Shown here: piece by piece, positions 5,998-47,355 of the stretch | Position numbering within the stretch: the stretch's first letter is position 1 | Layout of the letters: each line of letters opens with the position of its first letter | Assembly (NCBI GenBank): GCA_963666315.2 | Contig: CAXXHG010000039.1 | Location: 64,001 to 128,000, forward strand | Reading direction: 5' to 3' | Source of the DNA: Candidatus Binatia bacterium | GTDB lineage: Bacteria > Desulfobacterota > Binatia > Bin18 | Length of the DNA: 64,000 nucleotides | Made by a program: the position numbers and the translations under genes | Notes under the pieces: model-generated | Database searches by the model: none | What the model was told of the DNA's origin: nothing | The model's input: the letters and a program-made list of their open reading frames with translations, nothing else

Positions 5998-6813
5998 ATG
6001 GAACAACTTACAGACAAAGTCGCCGTCATCACCGGCGGAGCAAGTGGAATCGGACTGGCTACGGCGCGTGTACTTGCCAGCCGAGGCGTACGGCTGGTGT
6101 TGGCAGATGTAGAAGCCTCGGCCTTGGACCAGGCGGTTGCTGAGCTGTCTGCAAATGGGACGACGGTCCAAGGTGTGGTGTGTGATGTCGGCGACTTGAA
6201 GGCGGTGCAACGACTGGCTGATACGGCCTTCGACTCAATGGGCGCCGTGCACCTTGTGTTTCATAATGCCGGGGTGGCGGTTGGCGGTCCGATTGTTGAC
6301 ATGAAACACAGTGACTGGGAATGGACCCTGCGGGTGAACCTGTGGGGCCCCATACACGGCGTTGAAGTGTTTGTGACACGCATGATCGCGCAGGGCACAG
6401 GCGGCCACATGGTGTTTACCGCGTCGTTTGCCGGTCTGGTCCCAAACGAAGGACTTGGGCCGTATTGTGTGTCCAAATATGGTGTTGTGGCCTTAGCTGA
6501 GGTATTGCGCCGAGAACTGCGAGCCCATGATATTGGGGTGTCGGTCCTATGTCCGATGCGTGTCGCAACGAATATCGGCCACTCCGAGCGTAACCGTCCC
6601 GCTGCGTTGGGAGGCGCAGGAGCTTCCCCTCAGGTGCAAGACCAAGGTGAAGACAATAGCAATCTTGCCGGACGAGTGCTGAACGTGGACGATGTAGCGT
6701 CTCAAGTCGTTGATGCTATTTTCGCCAATCGGCTGTATATTCTGCCGCACGAAGAAAGCCGGCAGTCCGTCCGGCGTCGCTTCGAGCGTATCGATCGGAC
6801 GTATGATGAGTAG
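5998..6813 (+). CDS. Short-chain dehydrogenase/reductase
   Basis: TGGASGIG, HNAG and YCVSK. Confidence 0.92.
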   Translation: MEQLTDKVAVITGGASGIGLATARVLASRGVRLVLADVEASALDQAVAELSANGTTVQGVVCDVGDLKAVQRLADTAFDSMGAVHLVFHNAGVAVGGPIVDMKHSDWEWTLRVNLWGPIHGVEVFVTRMIAQGTGGHMVFTASFAGLVPNEGLGPYCVSKYGVVALAEVLRRELRAHDIGVSVLCPMRVATNIGHSERNRPAALGGAGASPQVQDQGEDNSNLAGRVLNVDDVASQVVDAIFANRLYILPHEESRQSVRRRFERIDRTYDE

Positions 6814-6821
6814 CGGGCGAA

Positions 6822-6872
6822 ATGATGAAAGGGCTGGCAACGATTACGCCCCACCCGATTGTCCAGATGTAA
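6822..6872 (+). pseudogene. Original 5' end of the VOC/glyoxalase gene, cut off by element integration
   Basis: MMKGLATITPHPIVQM then TAA; HPIVQM is encoded by the att core and continues as HPIVQMCWVVDD at 20179. Confidence 0.8.
6852..6870 (+). repeat. attL core CACCCGATTGTCCAGATGT
   Basis: Identical to 20179-20197. Confidence 0.9.
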
Positions 6873-7116
6873 ACAAGCTGTGAGATTTCAATAACTTAGC
6901 GGGTTGTGCTGCGCAGAATCGCGCAACCCCACGCACAATCCGCAACCTATCCGCAACCAACATCCTGCAATGAGGAGGTCTGGAATCCCGACCTTCCTCA
7001 AGCTACCATAACCCCAACCGGGAGGGCCTAGCCTTGGCCAGCGAAAAGGTGGTGTCTCTCCTGCCCGCCCTGGCCCTCCTGTCTCACAGCAGGAGCGTGC
7101 CTGACAGGAGACAGGT

Positions 7117-7930
7117 GTGGGACATTCCAAATCTAAGCAGGCGGCCGAGGTATCCGAGGCCCAACGCGCGTCGGACCATCTAATCAATGTCGTCACCAAA
7201 AGAGGAAAGCTGCTGAGCATGGCAGCGGCTTACGTTGTTGCAACGATGACGTATCCACAGGATGAGGATGGGAGGCGGCGCTGCATCCTCATCCTACTGA
7301 CCGGAGTAAGTGGACGCGCACAAAAGAGGGTGCCGCGCAGTACCGACAAGATCAGCCGAACGTTAGGAGACCAGATCAGTCACTATGGAGGCTATGCCGC
7401 CCTCAGTGACGTGCCCGCACACGCGGAAATGATGCAAGCCTATAGGGACAGGAGCAGGCATGGCCTCCTCGCGGGTGATGTCCTGTTGAACGTGTATCGC
7501 ATAGACAATACGGGCATGCCAGCCAGCGTAAACAAAGCGGTATTCCTTCGCGCATCACAAGACAACGACGCGCCGGTCAGCGAGAGAAAGGTCCGCCATG
7601 CATGGAGCGACTACAGGTCCGTCGCTCCGTTCTGGGCTGCGTTACGGCTGCGGCAACAAGCCAACAGTCCCGGAGGAAAAATCCCTCAAGCTTCTCCTAC
7701 AGAGATCCTCCCAAAAAGAATTGCCCGCGTTCCTAGCGGAGTGTGAAGCTTTCCGTTTATTTGCCATCACCTTCCACGCCCGTGGTATGTCTAATCCCCT
7801 CCTCGATGCCGCCAAAGTCTGGTGCATACCTGCGAACGTACACTTGCCCGATGGCCCGCTGTGGCATGCGCAGCTTTCCCCGCCGGAACTGCTGATTCTC
7901 GCAGGCTACCACGCACGACAGCGGTCCTAA
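7117..7930 (+). pseudogene. Hypothetical element protein upstream of xis, apparently frameshifted
   Basis: Overlapping ORFs 7117-7746 and 7598-7930; AGGAG RBS before the GTG. Confidence 0.5.
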
Positions 7931-8052
7931 CGCAAGCAGCCGAGCGTCTCTGCGCTGCCTGTCTGAAGACGCACCGGCCCCTTATCTACAGTACTGCAGG
8001 CCCACTCTGCATGAATTACAGCTGTTTTCTCCATTGATATCATCCTCTCGCT

Positions 8053-8322
8053 ATGACACGAATCGAAACGAGCCTACAAGCCGACGGGTTTCTCAGCAAG
8101 CGAGAAGCCGCAGAATATCTTTCTCTTTCCGCCCGCTCAATAGATAATCTCCTGGCCAAAGGCGAGCTACCGGCCTTTAGACCTCCCATCGGGACGGAAC
8201 ACGGGCGCAAACTGCTTTTCCGGCGATGCGACTTGGACGCATGGGTCGAGCGCTATCCGGCGAACCAGGATCTCGATCAGATCGTGGAAGAGGCCCTTGT
8301 CGGAATGGGTCGAGAGAAATAG
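8053..8322 (+). CDS. Excisionase-like helix-turn-helix protein (HTH_17)
   Basis: FLSKREAAEYLSLSARSI...GELPAF...LLFRRCDLDAW. Confidence 0.85.
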   Translation: MTRIETSLQADGFLSKREAAEYLSLSARSIDNLLAKGELPAFRPPIGTEHGRKLLFRRCDLDAWVERYPANQDLDQIVEEALVGMGREK

Positions 8323-8493
8323 ACCTCGTGTCTTACTGCTGGCGGGGAGGTGTACTTACATTCTTTGCCAATCAACCACCGGTTTGTGTGAGAACACCTC
8401 CCACGTGGAACTCATAGGCCTCGTGAGAAGGTCAGAACGACGCACCATAGGACGTTCATTTGGGAGACCATAACCGCCCAAGGAGGGAGAGAG

Positions 8494-8793
8494 ATGCCGC
8501 GCAGAATGAAGAAGTTTGAACTCGGATCATTATATCTCAAAGCCCAAAATTGCCGCTTCGATATAGAGGCAGTGAGAACGATCCTAAATCAGGAACTAAA
8601 GCCGTTGATCATTGGCGATGAGGCGGCAATGGATGCATGGCGCGACGCATTTATATTCACCTTACGGCTCTGTGGCTATCTACGAGAAACCACCGAAGCG
8701 CTCCGTTACGCTTACAACGACGCCCAAGGCCACCCTCATCCTGAATTTGGGAGGAAGATCGAATGCCAGCCTGCTCCAAAGCTAGGTGACTAG
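8494..8793 (+). CDS. Hypothetical element protein
   Basis: 99-aa ORF with AGGAGG RBS, co-oriented with xis. Confidence 0.5.
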   Translation: MPRRMKKFELGSLYLKAQNCRFDIEAVRTILNQELKPLIIGDEAAMDAWRDAFIFTLRLCGYLRETTEALRYAYNDAQGHPHPEFGRKIECQPAPKLGD

Positions 8794-8934
8794 ACACCAG
8801 CTACAGAGGCGTGTGGTCCCTCAGCGCAAAAAAGCCCGACCCGGTGGGAGCCAGGCAGGGCAAAAATAAATTACGACTGTGGCTTGGGACGCCTTCCACA
8901 AAAGCCCCAGGCCACCGGTCAAAAGGAAATAATT

Positions 8935-9279
8935 ATGAGAGACGATAACATAAATGCCGGTACAACCCAAGACGGCCTACCGCTCCAATGGGCGCCCTAC
9001 TACGCGAGCCTAAGGTACCCTGTCTTGCCCGTTCACACGCCCACGACCAGCACTGTAGCCAGACGAACCATACGGGAGGGAAAAATGGACGATGGCAGGC
9101 TAAGCTGCGATCAGTGTCCGTACACGATCGCGGTTTCTCTGGAAGACATCGACGCGGACATTCACCAGGCCGGAGACGTGCGCTCGTGCGGAGACAATGC
9201 TGGTTTTCTCTGCGCCTCCTGCCACAGCGAACTGGTGTTTGAGGATCCACAGCCTTTCCCGGAGGAGCCAAGTGTCTAG
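8935..9279 (+). CDS. Hypothetical protein: Prim-Pol-like N-terminal motif plus CxxC...CxxC zinc finger
   Basis: WAPYYASLRYPVLPVHTP; CDQC...CASC. Confidence 0.45.
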   Translation: MRDDNINAGTTQDGLPLQWAPYYASLRYPVLPVHTPTTSTVARRTIREGKMDDGRLSCDQCPYTIAVSLEDIDADIHQAGDVRSCGDNAGFLCASCHSELVFEDPQPFPEEPSV

Positions 9280-10351
9280 CTCGCCACCTCGCCGCCGTAT
9301 TGTTCCAGTGCATCTGATCCCCAGTACAGTTGAAGAGATCGACCCGGTCTCAGACTGGCACGAGGAGGAGTCAGAGGAACCGTTAAGTAGCCGAGAACCT
9401 GTGATCTTATCTGATGAACGCCGGGACTTGGGGCTTGTCACTGCCGGAGAGTTATTAGCCCAGCCGGATAGAGACACTCAGTGGCTAGTCGATGGTCTCC
9501 TGCCTGTCGGCGGTACCTCCGTTATGGTAGCCAAACCGAAAGTGGGCAAAACCGTCACCGTACGAAATCTCGCCAAGGCAGTCTCCCGTGGCAGTCCTTT
9601 TCTCAATCGCGGCACCCTACAAGGCACGGTCATCTACCTGGCGATGGAAGAGATCGAAGAAATGGTGAAGCAGTCTTTCAGAAAGATGGGTGTTACTGAC
9701 TCGGATCCCATCATGATCCGATGCAGCATGATGGATGAAACATCGGCCAGGCGACTACACGCCAGTATACGAAACGATCCCCCAGCGCTGTTGATCGTGG
9801 ATACGTTGTTTCGATTCGCAAGAATAAGAGACGAGAACAAGTACGCGGAGGTCACCAGGGCGCTGAATCCTCTGATCAATCTGGCCCGCGAGACCGGTAC
9901 GCACATATTGGCCACACACCACGCGAAGAAGGAGATCGCAATTGGGGACCCTATGGACGCGGTGCTCGGATCAACGGCGATATTTGGCTCGGTTGATACC
10001 GCCATTATGCTCCAAAAAAACTCGCAGGGCATTCGGACGATCTGGTCCGGTCAACGTTATGGCACTGCAATACCGAAAACAATTTTGCGTTTAAACACGG
10101 AAAGGGAACGTACCTGGATAGTCTCCGAGACAGTCCATGTGGAACCCGCAGGGGAGATGCGCCAGGAGCGAAAGGAACTGCTCAATATCGTCATCAATTC
10201 CAAGGATCCGCTATCAGCCAAACAAGTCGCACAACGTGCCAATAAAAACGAAAGTACGACGCGGAACATGCTAGAGAAGCTCATTTTGGCAGGAGATATT
10301 GAAAAGTGCAAAGAAGAAGGCCACGTAACATATGCCCCAAGAACTTCGTAA
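9272..10351 (+). CDS. AAA_25/RepA-type RecA-fold helicase with C-terminal HTH
   Basis: WLVDGLLP, AKPKVGKT (Walker A), LLIVDT (Walker B), THHAKK, LGSTAI; GGAGGAG RBS before GTG 9272. Confidence 0.85.
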   Translation: MSSSPPRRRIVPVHLIPSTVEEIDPVSDWHEEESEEPLSSREPVILSDERRDLGLVTAGELLAQPDRDTQWLVDGLLPVGGTSVMVAKPKVGKTVTVRNLAKAVSRGSPFLNRGTLQGTVIYLAMEEIEEMVKQSFRKMGVTDSDPIMIRCSMMDETSARRLHASIRNDPPALLIVDTLFRFARIRDENKYAEVTRALNPLINLARETGTHILATHHAKKEIAIGDPMDAVLGSTAIFGSVDTAIMLQKNSQGIRTIWSGQRYGTAIPKTILRLNTERERTWIVSETVHVEPAGEMRQERKELLNIVINSKDPLSAKQVAQRANKNESTTRNMLEKLILAGDIEKCKEEGHVTYAPRTS

Positions 10352-10525
10352 AGAAGTGTAGCAGGTATAGTAAAGAAGTGTCGTATAGGAACCGTAGTAG
10401 CCGTAGTAAGCCATGGTAGATTGAAACTGACGACGACAGCGTAGTAGGTAGCGTAGTAAACCAAAATCAAATGAATTCCATGTGTTAGAGGAGGATTACT
10501 ACGTTACTACACCTACCATGGCTTA
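10348..10525. repeat. Putative replication origin of the element (iteron cluster)
   Basis: GTAAAGAAGTGT x2, CGTAGTA x4, inverted TACTAC copies, and a 13-bp inverted repeat at 10407-10419/10513-10525. Confidence 0.6.
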
Positions 10526-10710
10526 TGCATGTTGACTGGAATGGCGGTCCACGTCGCCGGTTATCAGCATACGCTGGCCTCGGCGACGCTATGCTTCTTG
10601 CCGTCCTATCTGATTTGGCAGGTTGGCAAGTATCCCGTCGAAAATGGAAGATGTGACCTTGATGACTAACTTAACCCATATTACATGACAGGAAATCGGA
10701 GGACCCTCAT

Positions 10711-11181
10711 ATGCAGAGATTAAGCCTTGAGGCTGACGAAGAGGAACGAGTCCGTATGGAACGAGCCTGCCACAATGTGGACGATTGGCTCAGATCACAC
10801 CCTCGTGTTCCCGCTACGAAAACAGAGTTGCAGCATATCATGAACATCCACAGTGCCCTCGTCAGCGGATTCCAGCATGTGTCTCGACACGAACGGGAAC
10901 GCCTTGAACGAGGCATCGTTGATCACCTCTGGTATTATATCTCCCATCCGCCGAAACAAGCCGAGCCGCCCAGAAAATTAGGCCATGCGGCACCTATCCA
11001 GAAGGCCGTATTGCGCTTCCTGCACATGAATGAATATCCGATGGGCGCTGGCGAGATCGCTGTCGCGCTAGATAAGACACCGAACAACATGGCGCAGAGA
11101 CTCCTGTCATTGCACAAAGCCGGGAAAATAATCCGTGTGAGCCCTGGGCGTTATATTCCAGCTGGGCCTCCAGAGGCATAG
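10711..11181 (+). CDS. Hypothetical protein with C-terminal winged HTH
   Basis: PMGAGEIAVALDKT...LHKAGKIIRVSPGRY; GGAGG RBS. Confidence 0.55.
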   Translation: MQRLSLEADEEERVRMERACHNVDDWLRSHPRVPATKTELQHIMNIHSALVSGFQHVSRHERERLERGIVDHLWYYISHPPKQAEPPRKLGHAAPIQKAVLRFLHMNEYPMGAGEIAVALDKTPNNMAQRLLSLHKAGKIIRVSPGRYIPAGPPEA

Positions 11182-11351
11182 CTGGTCGCACTAGGCACAC
11201 GACTTATCCGCCAGAGCATAGACCGAGTAGTCGAGAAGCGCGATTTGATACATATTTCGCGACTACCCAGCCACTCGTTGCTCTTGCAGGTCACAAACCG
11301 CATGGATACTGATGGACAGGCGAGGTGGGGTCGTAAAAGGAGGGCCATTGA

Positions 11352-11918
11352 ATGCACGCTCTTTTCCACTTCAGTATTGCTGTCCTTTTGCTGTCTTCGG
11401 CAAGTTGCGAAGTCGTCTCGGACCTAGCGAAAGATGCTCGGTACAGGGGAACAAACGTGGGCTACCAACGATGTATTGACCGAAACGAAGATGTCGCTCT
11501 CAGCGCTGAGTCAGTCAAATCGCAGTGTAGCGCTGAGCATAGCCGGGTGATTAGGATCCTCCACGAGGCCAGCGCTTCCTATCAAAAACCACGATACAAG
11601 AGCGGCTCCTTGAGTGCGATCTTGCAGAGAAGCATTTATTTTGCTGGATTTGTTACAAACCTGTCCCGGGATCAGATAGTCACCGCTGTGGAGATCACCC
11701 TCACGCATCAGGATAATATCGATGAAGCAGGGCAACCGATCGGCGAAGTCGTTCGATCGGAGAACCTCTGGATTGAACCTGGAGCGATTGGGGGGTTTAG
11801 GATCGAAGGCTACGATCTGGATTTTAAACCAGCAGATGGGAGACTGAAGGACGGCGAGAAGTTTCTCTATTCATGGTCAATCAACAAAATCCGAGGGCTA
11901 CGGATAAAACTCCGTTAG
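11352..11918 (+). CDS. Putative lipoprotein, hypothetical
   Basis: Hydrophobic N-terminus ending SASC; 188 aa. Confidence 0.5.
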   Translation: MHALFHFSIAVLLLSSASCEVVSDLAKDARYRGTNVGYQRCIDRNEDVALSAESVKSQCSAEHSRVIRILHEASASYQKPRYKSGSLSAILQRSIYFAGFVTNLSRDQIVTAVEITLTHQDNIDEAGQPIGEVVRSENLWIEPGAIGGFRIEGYDLDFKPADGRLKDGEKFLYSWSINKIRGLRIKLR

Positions 11919-11949
11919 CCTGAGTAGTACAAGATTGTGATGGCGGGCA

Positions 11950-12235
11950 ACCGCGTATGACGTGCTGGCCGCCCACAACCCAATGACGGTGCGGCATGCT
12001 GCTGAGAGATACCGGGCGCGACAGGCACAGCTGTACTGTATTTTCAGATTTCGATCCCAGCGGGGAGCCGTGCGCTGCGGATATTACGCAGTACAATTTA
12101 CCCCCGGACTTGGCGAAACCAACCGACTCGCGGCGCAAGGCGTTTGTGCATAAATATGGCGATGTGTCAGTCGAGTTGGACGCGATACCCGTGGATAGTG
12201 GATACTGGAACAATGAGTGCGAGCGTGAGGCCCCA
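11950..12235 (+). pseudogene. Collapsed remnant of a TopoVI-A/Toprim-like mobile-element gene
   Basis: Fragments PMTVR, SDFDPSGE and YNLPPDLAKPTDSR...YGDVSVELDA in shifted frames. Confidence 0.5.
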
Positions 12236-12239
12236 AGGG

Positions 12240-12589
12240 AAAATTTCTTGGCCTGGTTTGATCGCCCGCAGGCTTTCAATGCGAGCCGTCTTCCAACGGG
12301 TTGAGATAATCAACTCCGCGTTCGGTTTTTCACCGTGATTAATATAACGGGTATAATTGGACTTCGGCCCGACCGCGTTGATCCAACGGTTCTTGCAGGC
12401 CCACATCAAGTAGAGTGATGATACATAGGGTTCTCGGTTCGCATGCCAATCACGAATAATCTCGCCAACATAATAGCCTATGGTTTCACCCTTCTTGATC
12501 ATAGTTTTGGCAAACACGCCTTTTCCGCGTCCGGGAGAATTTTTGATGATGAAGCTATCAAAAGTATGCACTACCTTCTTCCTTGGCAT
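12240..12589 (-). pseudogene. SET domain protein, 3'-truncated
   Basis: GKGVFA and RYINH...PN; ends at GQEIF without the expected xDY motif. Confidence 0.75.
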
Positions 12590-12621
12590 TAGTCCTCCCC
12601 GCCTCAACCCTCATACGTCTT

Positions 12622-13509
12622 TTATGAATAGATCAGCGTCCCATGCGCTCCGGATTCACGCAACCGCCAATATAAGGCATCAAGCTTTTGTGTAATCGGA
12701 CCAGGGGTCGCTCCTTGGAGCGGGCGCCCTGAGACTTCCCGTACGGCTAACGCCCCGCCGGCCGTGCTGCAAGTAAAGACTTCGTCCGCCGAGTATAGAT
12801 CAAAGGCCGTTAAATCTCGCTCAACGGCAAGAATGCCAGCTTCTTCGGCAAGGTCAAGAAAAGTCTGGCGGGTAATGCCATGCAGCACCTCCCGTCCGGG
12901 TGTATACAGCGTCCCTTTACTGACCATAAAAATATTTGATGCCGGCCCCTCGCTCACATACCCGCCAGTTGAAAGCCAAATAACATCATCATATCCCGCC
13001 TCCAGCGCCTCAATCTTAGCCAGTTGAAAATGGAGACGATCCAGGCATTTATAACGCGGGTCAAGTGTGTCAGGCGTAAAGCTGCGTAAATGGCTAATGA
13101 AAAGGCGAATACCCGTATTCCGTTTTTCCTCGTCCGCGAGGAAAACATACGGTGCAGCCCAGATGATAACGGTTGGATCGTAATCACGCGGGTCAGCGAC
13201 CACCTGCTTCGCAACTCCACGTGTCACAATAAAGCGGATGCTCGCATCCTGCATCTCGTTGCAGCGTACGGTTTCAATGATCGCTTTACGCCACTGTTCC
13301 CTCGTCATAGACGTGGTCAGCCGTGCTGCCTGCAGCGACTGAAAAAATCGATCAAGGTGTTCGTCCAGCTTAAAGATGCTTCCCTTCCAGGCTGAGACCA
13401 CATCAAACACCCCATCGCCTAAGAGAAAACCTTGATCGAGTACAGAGATGTTTGCCTGACTCAGGGGCTTGAAGTCTCCGTTTATGTAAAGGAGGGGTTC
13501 GTTCGGCAT
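12622..13509 (-). CDS. Aminotransferase class IV (IlvE/Dat-like)
   Basis: GFLLGDGVFD, EHLDRF, EGPASNIF, LHGITR and ADEVF. Confidence 0.9.
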   Translation of the reverse strand: MPNEPLLYINGDFKPLSQANISVLDQGFLLGDGVFDVVSAWKGSIFKLDEHLDRFFQSLQAARLTTSMTREQWRKAIIETVRCNEMQDASIRFIVTRGVAKQVVADPRDYDPTVIIWAAPYVFLADEEKRNTGIRLFISHLRSFTPDTLDPRYKCLDRLHFQLAKIEALEAGYDDVIWLSTGGYVSEGPASNIFMVSKGTLYTPGREVLHGITRQTFLDLAEEAGILAVERDLTAFDLYSADEVFTCSTAGGALAVREVSGRPLQGATPGPITQKLDALYWRLRESGAHGTLIYS

Positions 13510-13738
13510 GGTTTGGTTTACCTCTTCGACCTTAGTGCAAGTAGCGCGCCCTTCGCATCTGGAGTCATCTATACTACGCGTCTTAACAAGGGAACTAGGG
13601 GAAGGACAATGAGATATCCTTATCGAATCTAAATCAGGTAGGCGGTCGAGATAAAAATGGGAACAGCAATCGAACAGGAATGGCCAGCCTCCGGCTTAGG
13701 AGAAAGTGCTGGAGGGGGATAAAGAAAGAAGCGCTCGC

Positions 13739-14419
13739 TTACTTACGAGCCTTCGCTGGCAGGGCAAAGTTAAGGACTTCACCAGCCGCCCACATACCAA
13801 CGGCAATTGCAGCTCCGACAGGACCACCAGTCAGGGCCCCAATCCCGGCAGACGTACCAGCACCCACAGCCTGGCCGGTGCGTTTCGCGTCATTCTTATC
13901 TCGGCCCAAAGCGGAGGCGGTGGATTCGGCAATAAGCTGTGCGGCATCTGCAGCAATCAGCCAGGGTGTTGTTGCCGCTCGACTGGCAGCTTTACTCGAA
14001 AGCTTTGCGGACGCTTTTACTGCAAGTTTGGCAGCACCGGTGGTAACCATGCTCACCACAACTTTTGATACAGCGTCAGATGCGCTTTCTATAAACCGAT
14101 CAACCTGCTGACTTTCGCGTTTGCCAGTGCGACACCAATTGACAAAATGCTCACAGTTATTCCACAGAATGTGATATTCCTGTTCACCGATACAATTCAA
14201 CGCTCGGAGGGCGATCTCATCGGCATCAAAAGAAGTGGGAGTAGAGTGAACCTCAATCGAGTGGCCTTTGGAGAATTTTTCGCCAGACGTGACGTGAACG
14301 GACGCCGTCACCCCATCCGATAGGCCTCGCCCATATTGGACGACATAGCCATCGCCAAGATCGATGGCGTGGTGCGTATACCAGCCACGTCGGGCGATGA
14401 GATGGTCGCCTTTTGCCAT
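13739..14419 (-). CDS. LRAT/NC-domain protein (permuted NlpC/P60) with C-terminal Gly-rich helices
   Basis: YTHHAI and NNCEHFVNWCRTG. Confidence 0.85.
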   Translation of the reverse strand: MAKGDHLIARRGWYTHHAIDLGDGYVVQYGRGLSDGVTASVHVTSGEKFSKGHSIEVHSTPTSFDADEIALRALNCIGEQEYHILWNNCEHFVNWCRTGKRESQQVDRFIESASDAVSKVVVSMVTTGAAKLAVKASAKLSSKAASRAATTPWLIAADAAQLIAESTASALGRDKNDAKRTGQAVGAGTSAGIGALTGGPVGAAIAVGMWAAGEVLNFALPAKARK

Positions 14420-14479
14420 AGTGCTTACCAAATCCTCTTTACCAGAATGCCACGACTAAAGCCCTCAACAAAGACCTTA

Positions 14480-15156
14480 TTAGGTAACAGTTTCGGCTGA
14501 CGAATCATGAGGGGCATCGGCGCTCTGCGATCTTTTATAAATCGTCACGGCACACGGACGCCCCACCACTTCGCCCTTCTCGTTGAACTCGCCATACTCT
14601 GATTGAAACAGATCCATGCCCCATTCGCGAGGCTGGGTATCAAACCACAGCTTGGTATGCGCAGTAATACAGGACGTCTTTTTGATTGAAACTCCATTTT
14701 GCGGCTTCTTGGTCACACCGAGCTGACTCGGATGGCGCGTTGATGTTTCGGCCTTGCCCTCTTGAAGCATGCGGCCTCCACTGGGGCAGTAGTGCAGCAA
14801 GAACTGGAACTTCTCATCGTCTTCTTCGCATGTGAAGTCATAGCCGTGAGAGCGCAGGAACATGGCATATGTTTCAGCCAGCAGGGCGGGGTCTTTATCT
14901 CGATGGGCTTCCAGGACGTGCGCCACAGTTTTTCGCCTACATAACGCCAGGCTTCCTCAACCGCATCTTCGCCGAGTTTTTCTTTGACGTAGTCAAGAAA
15001 TACGGCAGACATGTCGCCGTACAGATCGTGGATCGGACGGCCCTCTTCCCAAATTTCGTCGACCGCCTTCAGCGCCTGTTCCGTTTGTCCTGCTTCGATG
15101 GCCGCCTTGGCCCGGTCACGAGCCGTTTTCATGAAGTCGTGACGGATGCGTTTCAT
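14480..15156 (-). pseudogene. Frameshifted hypothetical protein (CPSGGRM motif)
   Basis: Split over ORFs 14713-15156 and 14480-14926. Confidence 0.55.
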
Positions 15157-15161
15157 AATGC

Positions 15162-15605
15162 TTACACAAAAATATCGAGCGGCAAAAATGCAGAGACAAG
15201 GAAGTTGGGGACATCCACGAGTTCACTGACCTTGAGATCCACGGCTACGCTGCAGATGGCGTAGGCCTGTTGGCGGGTATAGCCACGCTCATCAACCAGA
15301 TGATCGATCATATTCAGCAGCGCGTTCCGGGCCGCGAGCGTAGCGTCTTCTGAATGCGCAACGCCTTCACGTGTATAGGGCTGCCCCGTTGTTGCAAAAA
15401 AGCGCTTGGGAACGGCCATCCCTGGTGTAGTAAAATAATCTTCGCGATAGAACTGAATATCCCGAATATTGTGTTTTGCCGCCATTCCTTTGAGAACCAT
15501 AAACGAACAGTAACACGTGGCCGCCATCTCAACCGCGGTACCGCAGCTCTCGCCATCTCCTTGAGCAAAGTGTGCATCACCGACGGAGAACAACGCACCC
15601 GGCTA
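15162..15605 (-). pseudogene. Acetamidase/formamidase C-terminal fragment
   Basis: FSVGDAHFAQGDGESCGTAVEM and AYAICSVAVDL...VDVPN; the N-terminal part is missing. Confidence 0.8.
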
Positions 15606-15609
15606 CACT

Positions 15610-17949
15610 CTTGGTGAACGTCTCCGGCAGCGGCGTCTACAGAAGCACGGATGGAGCGACGAGTTGGGCTCCCGTCAACCTGGACGTTGGTGATCTCGGA
15701 ATCACGTCGTTCCTCTTCGACCGTGTCTACCCGCAGACGGTCTATGCGCGCACGGCCAGCGGCGTACTCAAAAGTGTTGACGCCGGCGTTTCATGGATAC
15801 CGACAAACAGCGGACTGACGAACGCCTCAGTACGTTCTGTAACGGTTGACCCGCTCTCTCCTACTACTCTGTATGTCATCACCAGTGGTGACGTATTCAA
15901 AAGTACAAACGCCGGTGAATCCTGGACTAACCTGGACACTGGCATCCCCACCCTCACCGTTCTCGCGATCGACCCGGTTGATCCGACCATACTGTATGCT
16001 GGCATAGCAAAACTGTACGGCACCGAGGGGGGCGTATTTAAGAGTATCGATGCAGGAGAAACGTGGACGGCGGCGAATGTCGGCATCAGAAACCATTCAG
16101 TCAGGGGACTCGTGATCGACCCTGATAGGCCAACAACGCTATATGCTGGGGCCACACCGGACTTCTCCGCGGAAGTGACAGACGTGTTTAAGAGTATCAA
16201 CGGTGGAGCAAGCTGGGGACAGGTCAACGACATCGATTATGTTTCCTCTTTGGCCATAGACCCCAATTCTCCGACGACTGTGTATGCCGGCGGACTTGAT
16301 CGGGTCTACAAATCGGTAGACGGCGGCGAGACGTGGACTTCGACAGTTATTGGAGCAGTCTTTGGTGAACTCTATGTTGGCGCCTTAGCAATTCCACCCT
16401 CAACCACCACGATAGTGTACGCCGGTACGTCCAGAGGCGTCTTCAAGAGCACGAATGGCGGAGACAGCTGGGTAGAGGTGAACAGAGGGCTCCCATCATT
16501 CCAGCGACACCCATTGGGCTCTGGATATAGCAACGTCGCGACGTTGGATGCGCTAACAGTTGATCCCACCACCCCAATGACTCTGTATGCAGGAACCGAC
16601 AGAGGGGTATTCCGGAGTACCGACGGCGCCAGTAGCTGGAATGCAATAAACATGGGGCTCCCAAATGCTTATGTAAGTGGACTCGCGATTGTTCCATCGG
16701 GCACCATACTGTATACGGCTACCGGTGCTGGTGTTGGCAGTTTCGAGTTTTCCGGAGAAGAGCTGCCGAGGATCATTGCCCATTTGGAGACCCCGGAAAA
16801 AGAACGAGACCATTTTTTTCTATCTATTTTACCTTGGTTTCTGGCATTGGCATAATTCAGGGGTGGGCCTTTCCCACCCAGGCAGGCAGTCAGATCAGCG
16901 GTGTGTACATAGATGCCAGCAGCCGTAGAATCCGCGTCCCCTGTTGCTCAGAGCGGGCGCACGTGAGCGCAGTATATCCGGAATTCTCTCCTCACAACAC
17001 ACGCAATAGCGGTTGGAGTACAACCCTTAATTGGAACATAAACTTTGTTCTATCGTATCCGGATTTGGTAAACGTCGAAATACGGGGTACGCGAGGGGAG
17101 TTCTTCTTCGCCGAGACACGTACCACTATGGCTATCAGTGCAGGCCAGTTCGAATTTGTCGATCAATTTCTCTTGTCGGAGGCAAATGTTGCAATCCGGG
17201 ATGGGCAACTCGCGGTGGCGGGAGTGATCGTTCGAGATAAGGTCACGCAGAAGCGGGTGAAGATCAATACGCGGTTTCGCTGGTCCGAGAGTGCGCAAGG
17301 CTTCCAAATGGTCGCAGCCGTGACCACGGGCAGTCTTGCCTCTCAACGATCCCCCGTGTTTGATTTCTTCGCTTCCCTCTCTTCCTGGTTCCCGGGTGCA
17401 AGGGCATTGGTCTCTTCTGCGTTCGCTGCCACTGGCATACGCGCTGTAGTCGAGAGTCCTCAATCGGGAGAAACCGTCTCTGGTGTTACGGTCATGCACG
17501 GGTGGGCGTTTTCAGAAGACAGCACGATAGCGCAGGTTCGCCAACTGATCGATGGGAAGCCTATTAGCAACGTACCGTGCTGTTCAGAGCGACGTGATGT
17601 CGCAGAGGCGTTCCCTGACAGCCCCAACGCGCTCCTAAGCGGGTGGGGGGTTTTATTTAACTACGGACTGCTCGGTTCCGGCGCCCACACCGTGACGATT
17701 GAAATCGAGGATACGGAGGGTAGCGTAACGACAAAGCATCATTCAATCGAAGTGGTCCGACTCGGTGGATTTGAGTTTGTCGATCAGTTTGATCTCTCGA
17801 TAGCGACGGCGCGTCTTGATGGAGAGCTGATCATCATAGAGGGGGTGAAGATTCGGGATAAAATCAGTCAGCAGACCAAAGTGATTGACGTTCACCTCCG
17901 GTGGTTTGAGAACTCCCAAAGTCTAGGCGTGGTGGCTACAAGCGAGTAG
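15610..17949 (+). pseudogene. BNR/Asp-box beta-propeller protein with duplicated C-terminal domain; 5'-truncated and interrupted near 16812
   Basis: Eight SxD/NxGxS/TW Asp-box repeats; two copies of VSG..GWAF...VPCCSER. Confidence 0.75.
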
Positions 17950-18196
17950 AGCATCCAAGGTCTGTGATGCGTTGCAAGCGGTGTTCATCTTGCTCAGACG
18001 TTGACACTGTTTAAGACAACAATATTTTTGCAAATTTTTTTCGTATATGAAGAGACGCTTCAGGGCCATGGACAGAGTCTGGAGGGGGGGCCTACCCCTC
18101 TGATTACGGAAGCACCTCATCGGGAGACGAGCTGAAATACTGTAGTTTCTACGAGGCAGAAATCCCACCCCTGCACCGATCGCTCGCTAAACGGCC

Positions 18197-18225
18197 TTGA
18201 CAAATATCACTGTATGTTCTATAAC
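18197..18225 (+). promoter_or_regulatory. Sigma70-type promoter for radC/int
   Basis: TTGACA-17 bp-TATAAC. Confidence 0.7.
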
Positions 18226-18433
18226 TATGTGTTCCTATTTCGTTATAGCAATCGCCGTTGTGGAGTCTCTTTCCACGGCACGACGAATCACAGAAAGGAG
18301 GGCAACAATATAACGCGGCGTGAAGTCGGCCACCCGAGGTGTATCGAGCACCCCGAGTAGCCTAGCAGCCCTCAGCACAGCGGGTACTGACAGCTGTTCC
18401 TTCGATTCCTAACCCGCCGGAGGAGTTCCGGCA

Positions 18434-18910
18434 ATGACACAGACTATCCACGAGTCACCACACTACGACATCCCCGTCTATAAAGTCACTCTCGTTAGGG
18501 AGAACAACTTGACCCAGCAACAACGCCCCATCGTTCGCGATGCCCAGAGCGCGGCCACCATCCTCGCAGCCTATCTGGCAGGGGAAGATAGAGAGCATTT
18601 CGTGGTCATGATGTTAAACGCCAAGAATCGCATCATCGGGATTAATACAGTCTCAGTAGGGAATTTAACGGCGTCTCTGGCTCATCCCCGGGATGTCTTC
18701 AAGCCGGCGATTCTCGCCAATGCGGCCGCTATCCTCCTGGCCCATAACCACCCGAGCGGAGACACTTCACCCTCCCGGGAAGATATTGCGTTGACTCGTA
18801 AGCTCTACGAGGGGGGCCAACTCCCGGGCATCACCTTACTCGATCACATTATCGTTGGGGATCATGACCACTGGTACTCGTTCCAAGATGACGGCATAGG
18901 CCTGGCGTAA
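18434..18910 (+). CDS. radC: RadC/JAB-domain protein (short mobile-element type)
   Basis: REHF, HPRDVF and HNHPSG...SRED. Confidence 0.9.
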   Translation: MTQTIHESPHYDIPVYKVTLVRENNLTQQQRPIVRDAQSAATILAAYLAGEDREHFVVMMLNAKNRIIGINTVSVGNLTASLAHPRDVFKPAILANAAAILLAHNHPSGDTSPSREDIALTRKLYEGGQLPGITLLDHIIVGDHDHWYSFQDDGIGLA

Positions 18911-18986
18911 GCGTCAACCTTTGATCTGGACGTACGGCTTCCCTTTGTGGGCCTGTACGTCCACACAGTTACCGAGAGGAGTCTAT

Positions 18987-20125
18987 ATGGCAGTCAAGGT
19001 CAGAAAGCGCAGAGACAAATGGTGGGTGTACATTGACCACAACAACAAACGGAAGGCCAAGTGTATCGGCCCGAGTAAACGCGCGGCGGATCAGGTAGCC
19101 GAGAAGATCCGGGCGAAGCTGGCACTGGGGGAAATGGGCATCCTCGACACAGAGAAAGAAGCTCCGTCCATCACCTTTGCAGAGTACCATCGGCATTGGT
19201 TCCAGCAGTACGTGGTGACAACGAAGAAGATACGGACGCAAGAGCAATACGAGATGATCGGCCGACTCCACCTGCTCCCAGTCTTTGGCGACGCCCGCTA
19301 CGTGACATCAAGGCAAAAGAGATCCGTCAGTTGGCCTTCCGCCTCCTCGCCGAGGGTCGAGCGCCCAATACTGTACGCAGGGTCCTGGTGGCGCTGAGTA
19401 GCCTCTTTCAGTTTGCGTGTAAGGACGAGGAAGTAGACCACAACCCTGTACGGGGTATTGCCGGCGAGATTCGGTCCAGCAATACCGAGGAGCGGAGTCC
19501 GGCAGATTTCTTGACACGCGAGGAACTTGGTCACGTGCTCCGGACTTGCCAAGAACAGATGTCCCGTCACTACCCTTTGGTCTCGCTCCTTGCGCGGACA
19601 GGGGTACGCATCGGGGAAGCGCTCGCCTTACGCTGGGACTGCGTGGACTTCCACGGCCGGTGCCTCATTATCAAGCATTCGGCTGATCGCGGCAGGATTG
19701 GGACACCGAAGTCGGGAAAAACGAGACGAGTGGATATGAGTCGAGGGCTGACCGAGACCCTCCAGGCGTATCATCTTCAGCAGCGGAAACGGGCGCTGCA
19801 GCAGGGCACGACGCAACCGTCGTTTCTGTTTACGACGCGTACCGGCGCCATGATGGACCGCGCTACCGTCCATCGGACCGTCTGGCAGCCACTCTTGCGG
19901 AAAGCGGAGATGCGGCATATCCGGGTCCATGACCTGCGGCATACGTTTGCGTCCTTGCTGATCCAGAACGGCGAGTCCTTGGCCTACGTAAAAGAGCAGA
20001 TGGGGCACAGTACGATTAAGATGACGGTGGACACCTACGGACACCTCGTACCCGGCGGGAATAGACAGGCAGTAGACCGGCTGGATGGGCTCGAAAAGGC
20101 AACCATCCGCAACCATACACTCTGA
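18987..20125 (+). pseudogene. int: Tyrosine recombinase/phage integrase, frameshifted near 19295
   Basis: N-terminus MAVKVRKRRDKWWV; catalytic RTGVRIGE, HDLRH, MGHS and TYGH in the second frame. Confidence 0.9.
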
Positions 20126-20139
20126 GGGAGGGAAAAAGC

Positions 20140-20436
20140 GTGCTAAGTCCTGAGAAAGTCTCACTGTGTAGCGAACAACACCCGATTGTCCAGATGTGTT
20201 GGGTTGTCGATGATATGGAAGCATCGGCCCAGCAGTGGGCCGCGACAATGGGGGCGGGACCGTTTTCCTGATCCCACATATTCAACTCGACGCGCTGACC
20301 TATCGGGGTAAACCTGCCACGCTGGATCAGTCGTCCGCCGTCGGCCAATGGGGCACGCTCCAAGTCGAGCGGTTTCAACAGCATTGCACCAACCCGTCCG
20401 GCGCGCGGGAAATGTACGCACCGGGAGAGACGGGGT
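20140..20436 (+). pseudogene. VOC/glyoxalase family gene body with element-provided start; frameshifted and 3'-truncated
   Basis: HPIVQMCWVVDDMEASAQQWAATMGAGPF/LIPHIQL...TYRG...QWGTLQVE. Confidence 0.75.
20179..20197 (+). repeat. attR core CACCCGATTGTCCAGATGT
   Basis: Identical to 6852-6870. Confidence 0.9.
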
Positions 20437-21348
20437 CGGCGGCTCATACGTCCACTGTCACATCAGTAGCGTTGGCGATAACGAGGCAAAAGACGACGAG
20501 GATTGCCTACGCATTATCCGGCGCTATCTGAGCTATTTCCCGACCAATGTATATACATCGCCGCCGCACGTTGAGCCGAGTGATGATCCAGAGCGCCGTG
20601 ATGAAGAGCTGCTTGCTATTGTGCCGCGTAACCGCAAGTGGCCGTATAATATGCTCTACGTGATGCGGCATCTGGTCGACCACGGCACGCTGTTCGAGCT
20701 CAAACCTCACTTCGGAAACTCGGTGGTGACCTGTTTGGCCCGTATGGACGGTGCAGTCGTTGGGCTAGTGGGCAATCAACCGCTGAATAGGTCTGGCATT
20801 ATTGATGGGGCGGCTGCCGATAAGGTGACCCACTTTATCCAGCTGTGTGACGCCTTCCACATCCCGCTCATCTTTCTGTCCGATGGGCCAGGCTTTATGA
20901 CCGGTTCTGTATCAGAACGCGAGGCGACCCTCCGTCGCGGGCTGCGTATTGCCTATGTCATGGCATATATCACTGTTCCTACAATCTCGGTTGTCTTACG
21001 CAAGGCCTATGGCATGGGCGCGGTTGCCATGTGTGGGCACAACAGCGGACAGATCCTGACCTTGGTCTGGCCATCCGGAGAGTTTGGCGCACTGCCGGTC
21101 GAAGGCGGTGTAGATGCGGGCCATAGACGTGCGTTGGCTGAGACCGAAGAGGGCGGGTGGACGCGCGAGGAACTGGAAGCGTACTACACGCAATTTGGGG
21201 TCCTCTCTCAACGGCGGAGACATCTAATTTCGACGATATTATTGACCCGCGTGAGACACGCCCGCGTATTATTCGAGCGCTGCGTGCTGCCCGTGCGCGT
21301 AACGCTGCGCCCCTCGGTCCGAAAATGCGACATGGGATTATGCCATAG
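20437..21348 (+). pseudogene. Acyl-CoA carboxylase carboxyltransferase, C-terminal half, frameshifted
   Basis: CDAFHIPLIFLSDGPGF, LRKAYG and FDDIIDPRETR...HGIMP. Confidence 0.8.
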
Positions 21349-42687: not shown

Positions 42688-42836
42688 AAAACGTTTTCCT
42701 CGTGGCTCGCTTTATGCAGCATCTTCTCCATCATGAGATGGCTCAGGCGAGCAGAGTGATCGAAATTATTGACATTTTCACACGTCCGGGATTGACAGAG
42801 GAAAAGAAGGTCGGGTAAGTACTTCACTTACTTTGT

Positions 42837-42920
42837 GCGAAAGTGGCGGAAATGGCAGACGCGCAGGATTCAGGATCCTGTGGGGTAAAACCCGTGGGGG
42901 TTCAAGTCCCCCCTTTCGCA
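42837..42920 (+). tRNA. tRNA-Leu(CAG), CCA not encoded
   Basis: Acceptor stem GCGAAAG/CTTTCGC; anticodon arm CAGGA-TTCAGGA-TCCTG; long variable arm; GTTCAAGTC T-loop. Confidence 0.95.
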
Positions 42921-42927
42921 TGAGTCA

Positions 42928-46485: not shown

Positions 46486-47355
46486 ATGCACCCGTTTGAC
46501 CATCCGGCTATTGCACGGCTGATTACGCTCGCTCTGGAAGAAGATATCGGCCGTGGGGATGCCACGACCTTGGCGACGATCCCGCCAGATCAGACCGCGC
46601 GAGGCAAAATAACAGCCAAAGCGGATGTCACGATTGCAGGCCTACCGTTGATCCTCATGGTCTTGCAGCAAGTCGATCACACCGCAGGCGTGCGACTGTT
46701 AGTGGCGGAGGGCGACCGGGTCTCACAAGGCGAGGTGGTTGTCGAGCTGTGGGGTGTGGCGACTGGCTTGTTAGCTGCCGAACGGCCCCTGCTTAATTTT
46801 CTGCAGCACTTGTCTGGAGTTGCGACACTGACCCGGCAGTTCGTTGAGGCCGTGGCAGGGACGAATTGCGACATTACCGACACCCGAAAAACGCTGCCCG
46901 GTTTCCGCCTGCTTGATAAATATGCGGTCGGCAAGGGAGGGGGGAAAAACCACCGGCTCGGGCTCGATGACGGCGTATTAATTAAAGACAATCATATTGC
47001 CGTGTGTGGCGGCGTTGGGGCCGCTGTGCGCCAGGCACGCAGCCAGGCTTCACCCTGGTTGCGGATCGAAGTCGAATGTACAACGCTTGAAGAGGTGCAC
47101 GAGGCGCTCGATGCTCAGGCGGATATTATTTTGCTAGATAATATGACCACCGCCCTGATGGGTGAGGCGGTGGAATATCTCAATAACCGTACCTTGGTTG
47201 AAGCCTCAGGCAATATGTCTCTTGATCGCGTTCGTGAAGTGGCTGAAACCGGCGTGGATTTTATCTCAGTCGGCGCGCTGACCCACTCGGCTCCGGCGGC
47301 AGATTTGAGTATGGCGGTGACCTGCGAAGCAGTGGCCTGTAAGGAGTCGCGCTAA
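46486..47355 (+). CDS. nadC: Quinolinate phosphoribosyltransferase
   Basis: DTRKT, NHRLGL, LIKDNH, LLDNM and EASG. Confidence 0.95.
   Translation: MHPFDHPAIARLITLALEEDIGRGDATTLATIPPDQTARGKITAKADVTIAGLPLILMVLQQVDHTAGVRLLVAEGDRVSQGEVVVELWGVATGLLAAERPLLNFLQHLSGVATLTRQFVEAVAGTNCDITDTRKTLPGFRLLDKYAVGKGGGKNHRLGLDDGVLIKDNHIAVCGGVGAAVRQARSQASPWLRIEVECTTLEEVHEALDAQADIILLDNMTTALMGEAVEYLNNRTLVEASGNMSLDRVREVAETGVDFISVGALTHSAPAADLSMAVTCEAVACKESR

Follow-up and report, generated by a model that had tools for sequence, protein, structure and literature searches.

The DNA examined here, hereafter the window, is a 64,000-nt stretch of Candidatus Binatia bacterium, an uncultured marine organism whose assembly (coded G000) comprises 4.99 Mb, and it contains an inserted segment that looks like an integrative element of the int-alpA type, lying in the 5′ coding end of a gene for a VOC-family protein. 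On the left flank lies an SDR gene (5998-6813, plus strand; Pfam adh_short, 3.9e-46), and 8 nt past its stop an ATG at 6822 opens a short frame, MMKGLATITPHPIVQM followed by TAA (6822-6872, plus strand), whose translation matches the N-termini of the native VOC proteins P0002-P0004, P0010, P0016 and P0020 and which represents the orphaned native VOC 5′ end. This stub runs into a 19-bp repeat, CACCCGATTGTCCAGATGT, at 6852-6870 (plus strand, the attL copy), and a second exact copy at 20179-20197 (plus strand, the attR copy), 13,327 nt away by repeat search, leads into the remnant of a VOC body. Repeat and motif searches that allowed up to two mismatches returned no third copy in the window, and the count in the whole assembly is likewise two; none of 100 shuffled windows contained two matches, which places the repeat far beyond chance. 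HPIVQM, the peptide encoded by the core, corresponds to residues 11-16 of the native VOC protein, which places the core inside the 5′ coding region of its target.

At the right-hand copy, the stop codon of an integrase gene (TGA, 20123-20125) is followed directly by a Shine-Dalgarno (SD) word, GGGAGGG (20126-20132), a 7-nt spacer and, 14 nt after the stop, a GTG at 20140. From this GTG a 13-codon leader, MLSPEKVSLCSEQ (20126-20178 with the SD word, plus strand), stays in frame across the core (HPIVQM) and on to CWVVDDMEASAQQWAATMGAGPF, after which the frame breaks; in full it reads VLSPEKVSLCSEQHPIVQMCWVVDDMEASAQQWAATMGAGPFS and ends at a TGA at 20269-20271. Codons 2-5 of the leader fall inside a motif of the element family, GCTAAGTCCTGA. 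An initial annotation of this stretch had placed the HPIVQM-encoding core at 6852 and 20179, a host ATG at 6822 ahead of the left copy with a TAA behind it, and GGGAGGG with an in-frame GTG at 20140 between the integrase stop and the VOC body; repeat searches, translation and direct reading of the junction bear out all three.

Empty and occupied sites

Metagenome contigs from four public runs (X1, X3, X4 and X9) were placed on window positions 6500-20900. In X4, one contig of depth 2.8 passes straight from 6854 to 20182 and so omits 13,327 nt, 16 letters at the joint being compatible with either side; in X1 and X3, contigs (depth 22.2 and 8.26, respectively) cover the left flank and the core and then carry GTTGGGTTGTC, the same 11 letters as stand behind the attR core in the window. 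The X1 and X3 empty-site contigs represent an abundant, diverged strain with approximately 22 differences over 6576-6832. The occupied form is present as well, in X1 record 6 (17885-20208) and X3 record 11 (18812-20208), which come from two studies and show 0 differences from the window, and empty and occupied forms co-occur in the same metagenomes. In X4 and X9, parts of the element have no cover, and these gaps were given no interpretation. The segment has direct repeats at both ends, and relatives show an empty site composed of the left flank, one core and the right flank; it is a discrete insertion in the first part of the VOC coding sequence. The initial annotation had expected the two halves to be contiguous in relatives lacking the element, as the X4, X1 and X3 contigs show them to be, and had proposed that the element targets a metabolic coding sequence in which it replaces a 10-residue N-terminus with one of 13 residues, a proposal with which both the empty-site contigs and the native and chimeric proteins described below agree.

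Such an arrangement could also arise if a metagenome bin had wrongly linked a mobile element and a VOC fragment by the 19-mer that both contain, and the element-bearing strain is indeed of low depth in X1 and X3 (~2-4), its contigs breaking 11 nt after the core. We consider the chance of such an artefact next to negligible, however, as contigs of two studies (17885-20208 and 18812-20208) cross the junction without a single difference, the independent assembly of a second species (G009) has the same attR junction, and four full-length proteins from other assemblies (P0001, P0008, P0015 and P0018) span it.

DNA of the left flank (6400-6870, with the 3′ portion of the SDR gene) was matched in 21 of 24 other genomes of the genus, and VOC DNA in 2 of 27. 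At nine genus loci (L002-L010), no VOC-like frame stood after the SDR gene among the frames listed, which covered both strands at five loci and only the strand opposite the SDR gene at the remaining four. Because the VOC gene is mostly absent from the genus, the unoccupied site (attB) was not obtainable by genus synteny and came from proteins and metagenome contigs. Whole native VOC genes do occur in other Binatia genomes (L033-L040, 77-83% identity), where their neighbours differ; L035, taken at one point for an SDR-VOC neighbourhood, was withdrawn, as Pfam identifies its upstream gene as a BKACE enzyme.

Chimeric VOC proteins and a replacement start

A query of the 42 residues read from GTG 20140 retrieved six longer proteins (P0001-P0006), all of which are Glyoxalase_4 (PF13669 precomputed on P0001-P0006; the open reading frame (ORF) of L035 reaches 6.5e-11 and 42.9 bits against a cut-off of 27; PDB 3gm5 matches the family at 1.9e-8). 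The N-terminus of P0002-P0004, MKGL(E/D)(T/A)ITPHPIVQMCWVVDD, equals the attL stub joined to the attR body, and the native type of start (MKGL.. or MIKELATITPHPIVQM) recurs in related proteins. P0001, by contrast, begins with MLSPEKVSLCSEQHPIVQMCWVVDD and has its full length of 183 residues. Its 90% cluster has 19 members, 15 of which were read; together with P0002-P0006 this gives 20 proteins, and nine of these carry the native N-terminus (P0002-P0006, P0010, P0016, P0017 and P0020), four a full-length element-type one and seven a truncated or altered one. The four element-type proteins (P0001, P0008, P0015 and P0018) are distinct from one another, each 183 residues long, and start MLSPEKV(S/A)LCSEQ, with S or A at position 8; they derive from other assemblies and are known here from protein sequence alone. 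The native cluster members, P0010, P0016 and P0020 (MIKELA(T/A)(I/M)TPHPIVQM) together with P0017, are 180 residues long, and the seven shortened or altered members comprise four forms of 147 residues beginning MGAGPFF, two of 84 residues and one with a foreign N-terminus. An AlphaFold2 model of P0001, built from a six-row alignment, is too poor for use (mean predicted local distance difference test score 54.6); in it, residues 1-17 precede the first strand at low confidence. Alongside the insertion, the empty-site alleles and the in-frame leader, intact chimeric ORFs are thus present in other assemblies.

We favour, with a probability of roughly 0.85, the reading that an int-alpA element sits within the first codons of the VOC gene and supplies it with an SD sequence, a start codon and a 13-codon beginning. 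Recombination by the tyrosine integrase would have taken place at the 19-bp core, within codons 11-16 of the VOC (Glyoxalase_4) gene behind the SDR gene. The gene thereby lost its native promoter side and its first 10 codons, which remain at attL in a dead stub of 16 codons, while at attR the end of the element provides the SD word 7 nt before the GTG and 13 codons that continue in frame via the core into the VOC body. This end directly follows the integrase stop, and no terminator-like site intervenes. Translation of a chimeric VOC protein with an altered N-terminus is therefore possible, presumably on transcripts originating within the element (radC-int).

The second species, G009, with flanks 88.5% and 91.4% identical to the window, holds the only other genome copy of this junction. 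Its attR consists of an integrase-end remnant, ATG-CTAAGTCCTGAGAAAGTCGCGCTGTGTAGCGAACAA, a core with one change and a VOC gene with a TAA after VVDDM, and its ATG-CTAAGTCCTGAGAAAGTC.. stands in the same place and frame as the window GTG. On the left side of the site the native type of VOC start is kept as ATGATGAAAGAG.., overlapping with the stop of the SDR gene; the genome lacks the attL core and, apart from the end remnant, the integrase. As judged from these sequences, the VOC site was either already occupied in, or independently hit in, this second species, where it has decayed further. In place of the element, G009 carries 1.4 kb (L016, contig C414, 2258-3621) with no likeness to it; going by ORF translations alone, this segment resembles a toxin-antitoxin pair (AbrB-like plus PIN-like).

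Integrase homologues (E <= 1e-20) are found in 4 of 28 genus genomes, G000 counted, and most relatives of the element have a motif, GCTAAGTyc..TGA, between integrase stop and core. At both VOC-site copies the triplet before CTAAGT is a start codon (GTG in the window, ATG in G009), whereas at all five other sites it is not (GCG, GCG, ACG, TGG and TGG), a pattern from a small sample that would fit fixation of a start codon only where one is needed. Conservation of the in-frame start among homologues, which the initial annotation had put forward as a check, holds for the G009 VOC-site copy with its ATG; the five elements at other targets have non-start triplets. Across 401 genomes of the class, the arm motif of the element occurs in only two, G000 and G009. 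Matches to the leader itself were mostly discarded: an 18-mer gave 13 metagenome-contig matches, one real (L085, which is the G009 contig) and 12 due to chance, and the three viral-contig matches to a 19-mer were all chance.

A contrasting account is plain insertional inactivation, whereby a dispensable VOC gene was disrupted and has decayed ever since, the GTG and the GGGAGGG word standing where they do by chance. Several observations, concerning the junction, the fate of the VOC gene and its expression, speak for this account or otherwise weigh against the reading that we favour. When 26,376 mock junctions were drawn from every position of the element on both strands, 55% had an in-frame start ahead of any stop, 9.8% had in addition a 4-mer Shine-Dalgarno match and 4.8% a 5-mer match, such that a start together with a ribosome-binding site is only moderately beyond chance. 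The first codons of the leader overlap the motif kept next to the cores of relatives, and their conservation may in part serve recombination and not coding. Each of the three species genomes with a VOC gene near this site (G000, G009 and a third, G024) has it in broken form, and most genomes of the genus, given matches in only 2 of 27 others, are without this VOC. In a tree of 18 VOC bodies, the four 147-residue forms group with the chimeric proteins (91/94 support), and their place in the chimeric lineage fits relaxed selection after insertion. Taken together, the broken alleles of the element-bearing lineage (G000, G009 and the four 147-residue forms) argue that the swap did not secure VOC function. 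The same tree is a polytomy on which the N-terminus label needs four changes, no fewer than in shuffles, leaving one insertion and several unseparated. Furthermore, no near-identical intact integrase was found with the C-terminal 309-residue query, the best of 2,272 protein matches being 61% identical.

Regarding expression, a promoter scan returned a single sigma-70-like site (18001-18028) where 1.1 were expected from shuffles; the sole plus-strand terminator-like site lies inside the integrase, with counts at shuffle level. The RNA library X9 yielded contigs that cover 19944-20094 and 20180-20330 with 0 differences, and a third, 20116-20251, that bridges the junction and, having 13 differences, is from another strain. 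The continuity of RNA from the integrase into the VOC gene that the initial annotation had called for would be hinted at by this one bridging contig, though with those differences and in a single library. All in all, the RNA contigs are a weak hint of expression, since they are short, come from one library found with this stretch and could reflect DNA carry-over. We infer that the chimeric gene is, or at one time was, expressed from element transcripts.

Despite these points, we judge insertional inactivation to be somewhat unlikely. Four distinct full-length chimeric ORFs exist, the start codon occupies the same position in two diverged copies (GTG and ATG) while all five relatives at other targets have non-start triplets, and the SD word is ideally spaced directly after the integrase stop. 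The same design is, moreover, functional in dusA islands (bioRxiv 10.1101/2021.06.18.448947).

Contents and decay of the element

The core genes of the element, the leader and the host gene all lie on the plus strand. The left arm (6871-6962, plus strand), shown by alignment to be homologous to the left arm of a sister element on contig C21 of the same assembly, contains two exact ATCCGCAACC at 6938-6947 and 6949-6958, and the motif search located a third at 20105-20114 in the last codons of the integrase; arm repeats therefore stand on both arms, two on the left and one at the integrase end. A further exact match at 47057 falls in an ordinary coding region and was taken as chance. Next on the left is an int-alpA RNA motif (Rfam RF02996; 7021-7093, plus strand), whose score is borderline (36.3 bits against a gathering score of 35.8) and which in circular order lies between the integrase and an excisionase-family gene. 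The latter encodes an AlpA-like HTH protein (8053-8322, plus strand; Pfam HTH_17, 2.3e-11; NCBIfam TIGR01764 'excise', 39.2 bits against a cut-off of 28.8), and behind it lies a gene for an AAA_25 RepA/primase-helicase-like protein with a C-terminal winged-helix part (9197-10351, plus strand; Pfam AAA_25, 3.1e-28; PHROG 906 DNA polymerase/primase, 3.8e-23). Towards the right end stand a RadC-like JAB domain gene (18434-18910, plus strand; Pfam RadC, 5.7e-42; NCBIfam TIGR00608, 139 bits) and the tyrosine integrase (18987-20125, plus strand; Pfam Phage_integrase, 1e-26, with a SAM-like N-domain). A tyrosine integrase, an excisionase-family gene, AAA_25 and RadC genes, an int-alpA RNA and the arm repeats together give the segment the look of an integrative element of the int-alpA type, and of a small integrative, possibly mobilisable, island. 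Pfam, NCBIfam and PHROG scans found no conjugation or virion genes among the window ORFs scanned.

Between these genes lies a cargo block on the minus strand (12167-15593), delineated by Pfam and contig comparison. It comprises a SET-domain gene (12167-12607), a class IV aminotransferase (12622-13509), an LRAT/NlpC-like gene (13739-14431) and a C-terminal fragment of a formamidase (15162-15593), all assigned by Pfam, together with a gene without an assigned family (14480-15156) that consists of two overlapping frames and has indels relative to a homologous copy. Homologous cargo in X1 and X3 has another arrangement, lacks the aminotransferase and has extra letters behind 14661, 14696 and 14917. 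Based on this different arrangement and the small insertions, the cargo block appears to be variable and partly decayed. On the plus strand follow a BNR/sortilin-repeat protein (15572-16855; Pfam, repeat family D1) and a protein that a profile scan assigned to no known family (16834-17949). Within the former, 15763-16471 holds five diverged copies of a 34-nt unit, which encode the repeated VFKS.DGG.SW blades of the BNR/sortilin-like protein. The sole tRNA gene of the window is a tRNA-Leu(cag) at 42836-42921.

Tyrosine recombinases share the catalytic motif R..HxxR..H/W..Y. The catalytic domain of the window integrase scores 94.2 bits with Phage_integrase (cut-off 27.1) and 8e-60 with PHROG 1 integrase, and the catalytic residues are found in its translation within ARTGVRIGE, HDLRHTF, GHS and TYGHL. 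Its reading frame, however, is interrupted. A tblastn search with the intact 390-residue paralogue aligned residues 2-102 in frame 1 and residues 98-376 in frame 3, with a join near 19292, so that the N-terminal part runs from 18987 to ~19292 and the C-terminal part from ~19277 to 20125. This break, of which the initial annotation made no mention, fits the loss of one base, and the frameshifted sequence is identical in X1 record 6 and X3 record 11, two independent assemblies.

The state of the integrase bears on a further proposal of the initial annotation, namely that the insertion is an integration-controlled expression switch in which excision and re-integration toggle the VOC gene between the SDR operon and the radC-int transcript. 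The occurrence of empty and occupied sites in the same metagenomes, the presence of integrase and excisionase-family genes and the placement of core element genes, leader and host gene on one strand are what such a switch would lead one to expect. Yet the integrase is a pseudogene with the same frameshift in two independent assemblies, no near-identical intact integrase exists among the protein matches, the empty-site contigs with their ~22 differences belong to other strains, and G009 has lost both the integrase and the attL core. Nor did the attP circle joint to which the initial annotation had pointed appear among the joints in contigs of the four runs, contigs being prone to drop rare forms. 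A reversible switch is hence very improbable, and we do not retain this part of the earlier proposal.

Decay extends to the VOC gene. Its remnant (20198-20434, plus strand), as read from the sequence and the contigs, is missing one T in the run at 20263-20266 and is cut at 20434, in line with the frameshift and truncation noted by the initial annotation. Other alleles have an extra T behind 20262 (18.3/18.3 in X1, 8/12 in X3 and 7.4/10.2 in X4) and run past 20434 as VOC (..VQHLTWFADD). In the window, the VOC body goes on in a second frame to ~20434 (ORF 20235-20531), where it is joined to a carboxyltransferase fragment that extends to 21526 (Pfam Carboxyl_trans, profile positions 185-434 of 493); this joint is a deletion into the middle of the carboxyltransferase gene. 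Other strains in X1 have different sequence on both sides of the joint. In G024 (L017, contig C1, ~6520-6650, minus strand), the SDR gene passes after its 5′ part directly into a VOC body, the two meeting at a shared GAAGC.TCGGCCCAGCAG word, and the VOC body itself contains stops; the fusion looks like a short-homology deletion that removed the remaining SDR gene and whatever intervened. In the genome under study, then, only a fossil of the system is left: one base is gone from the integrase, the VOC gene is short of one base and of its 3′ half, the cargo is partly decayed, and the second species retains only a remnant.

The sister element in the same genome (C21:107738-113275; L022 and L074) is 5.5 kb long and has an intact 390-residue integrase, 61% identical to that of the window. 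It is flanked by a 20-bp repeat, CATCAGATCCGATACATGAA, whose copies lie 5.5 kb apart, and its core is situated ~30 nt ahead of the ATG of a gene that, going by its translated N-terminus, is acetoacetyl-CoA synthetase-like, with the integrase reading towards this host gene. Its attL is also found in G009 (contig C344). The int-alpA RNA search gave no match in the sister element. About 200 nt inside its left end, at L074 1663-1699 (minus strand), is a single CRISPR-repeat-like match to RF01322 CRISPR-DR9, at 28.4 bits against a gathering score of 45. More distant integrase relatives (48-53% identity) have tRNA-Thr and tRNA-Ala genes, or 3′ copies of these, as neighbours. Beside a 48%-identical integrase on contig C38 of G000, a direct repeat of more than 350 nt (86279-86640 and 109540-109900) starts with a tRNA-like 3′ end, its copies 23 kb apart, which suggests a tRNA-type island or tandem islands.

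Known systems and implications

Hochhut and Waldor reportedly located SXT in the prfC 5′ end in 1999. The SXT/R391 integrative and conjugative elements resemble the window element in their insertion in the 5′ end of prfC and in the rebuilding of that end, and replacement of the 5′ end and promoter of the target gene, documented for dusA islands, is also stated for SXT in prfC (bioRxiv 10.1101/2021.06.18.448947). SXT is a conjugative element of ~100 kb, however, and no conjugation genes are among the scanned ORFs here. There is a likeness, too, with the dusA-specific integrative elements, in which the 5′ end of a protein-coding target gene is replaced with element sequence (dusA-associated integrase islands and prophages, Farrugia et al. 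2015, PMC4482086; IMEVchUSA3, PLoS Genet 2021, PMC8409611 = bioRxiv 10.1101/2021.06.18.448947). Those elements target dusA in Proteobacteria and were demonstrated by experiment, whereas here the target is a VOC gene in an uncultured Binatia lineage, the element is known from sequence and its integrase is dead; the integrases of the two were compared only as members of the tyrosine recombinase superfamily. The new N-termini differ as well. That of the VOC protein is unrelated to the native one and three residues longer (13 versus 10), while that given by IMEVchUSA3 is a look-alike of equal length, 61% identical over 35 residues.

The tRNA-targeting int-alpA or 'P4-like' islands share the gene set of the window element (integrase, AlpA/excisionase HTH, AAA_25 primase-helicase-like and int-alpA RNA), but the cores of the window copy and its C21 sister lie at the beginning of, or just ahead of, protein genes. 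A literature search found nothing on Binatia together with integrase and was the only search made for a prior description of the element. Because the dusA and prfC elements already demonstrate the principle by experiment, the locus presents no new mechanism and is a fossil case of a known one, with the same design and another target, host phylum and integrase lineage.

Its value lies in offering a natural before-and-after pair for 5′-end replacement, with an empty site, an occupied site and both intact and decayed chimeric genes, in a phylum without cultured members, and in showing that close relatives of one integrase differ in their targets, among which are tRNA genes, a 5′ leader and the 5′ part of a coding sequence. 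Such cases are useful to island-finding software restricted to tRNA genes and 3′ ends, and to gene callers, which otherwise misannotate the stub and the chimeric start. A broader scenario, which we put forward as a doubtful one, is that a tRNA-targeting integrase family came to use sites 5′ in or 5′ of acyl-CoA-related genes (the VOC coding sequence in the window, the leader on C21) with its integrase facing outward, the VOC start being built into the arm motif and the chimeric gene outliving the integrase. If true, this would have placed a host gene permanently under signals that derive from the element, in contrast to a transient switch.

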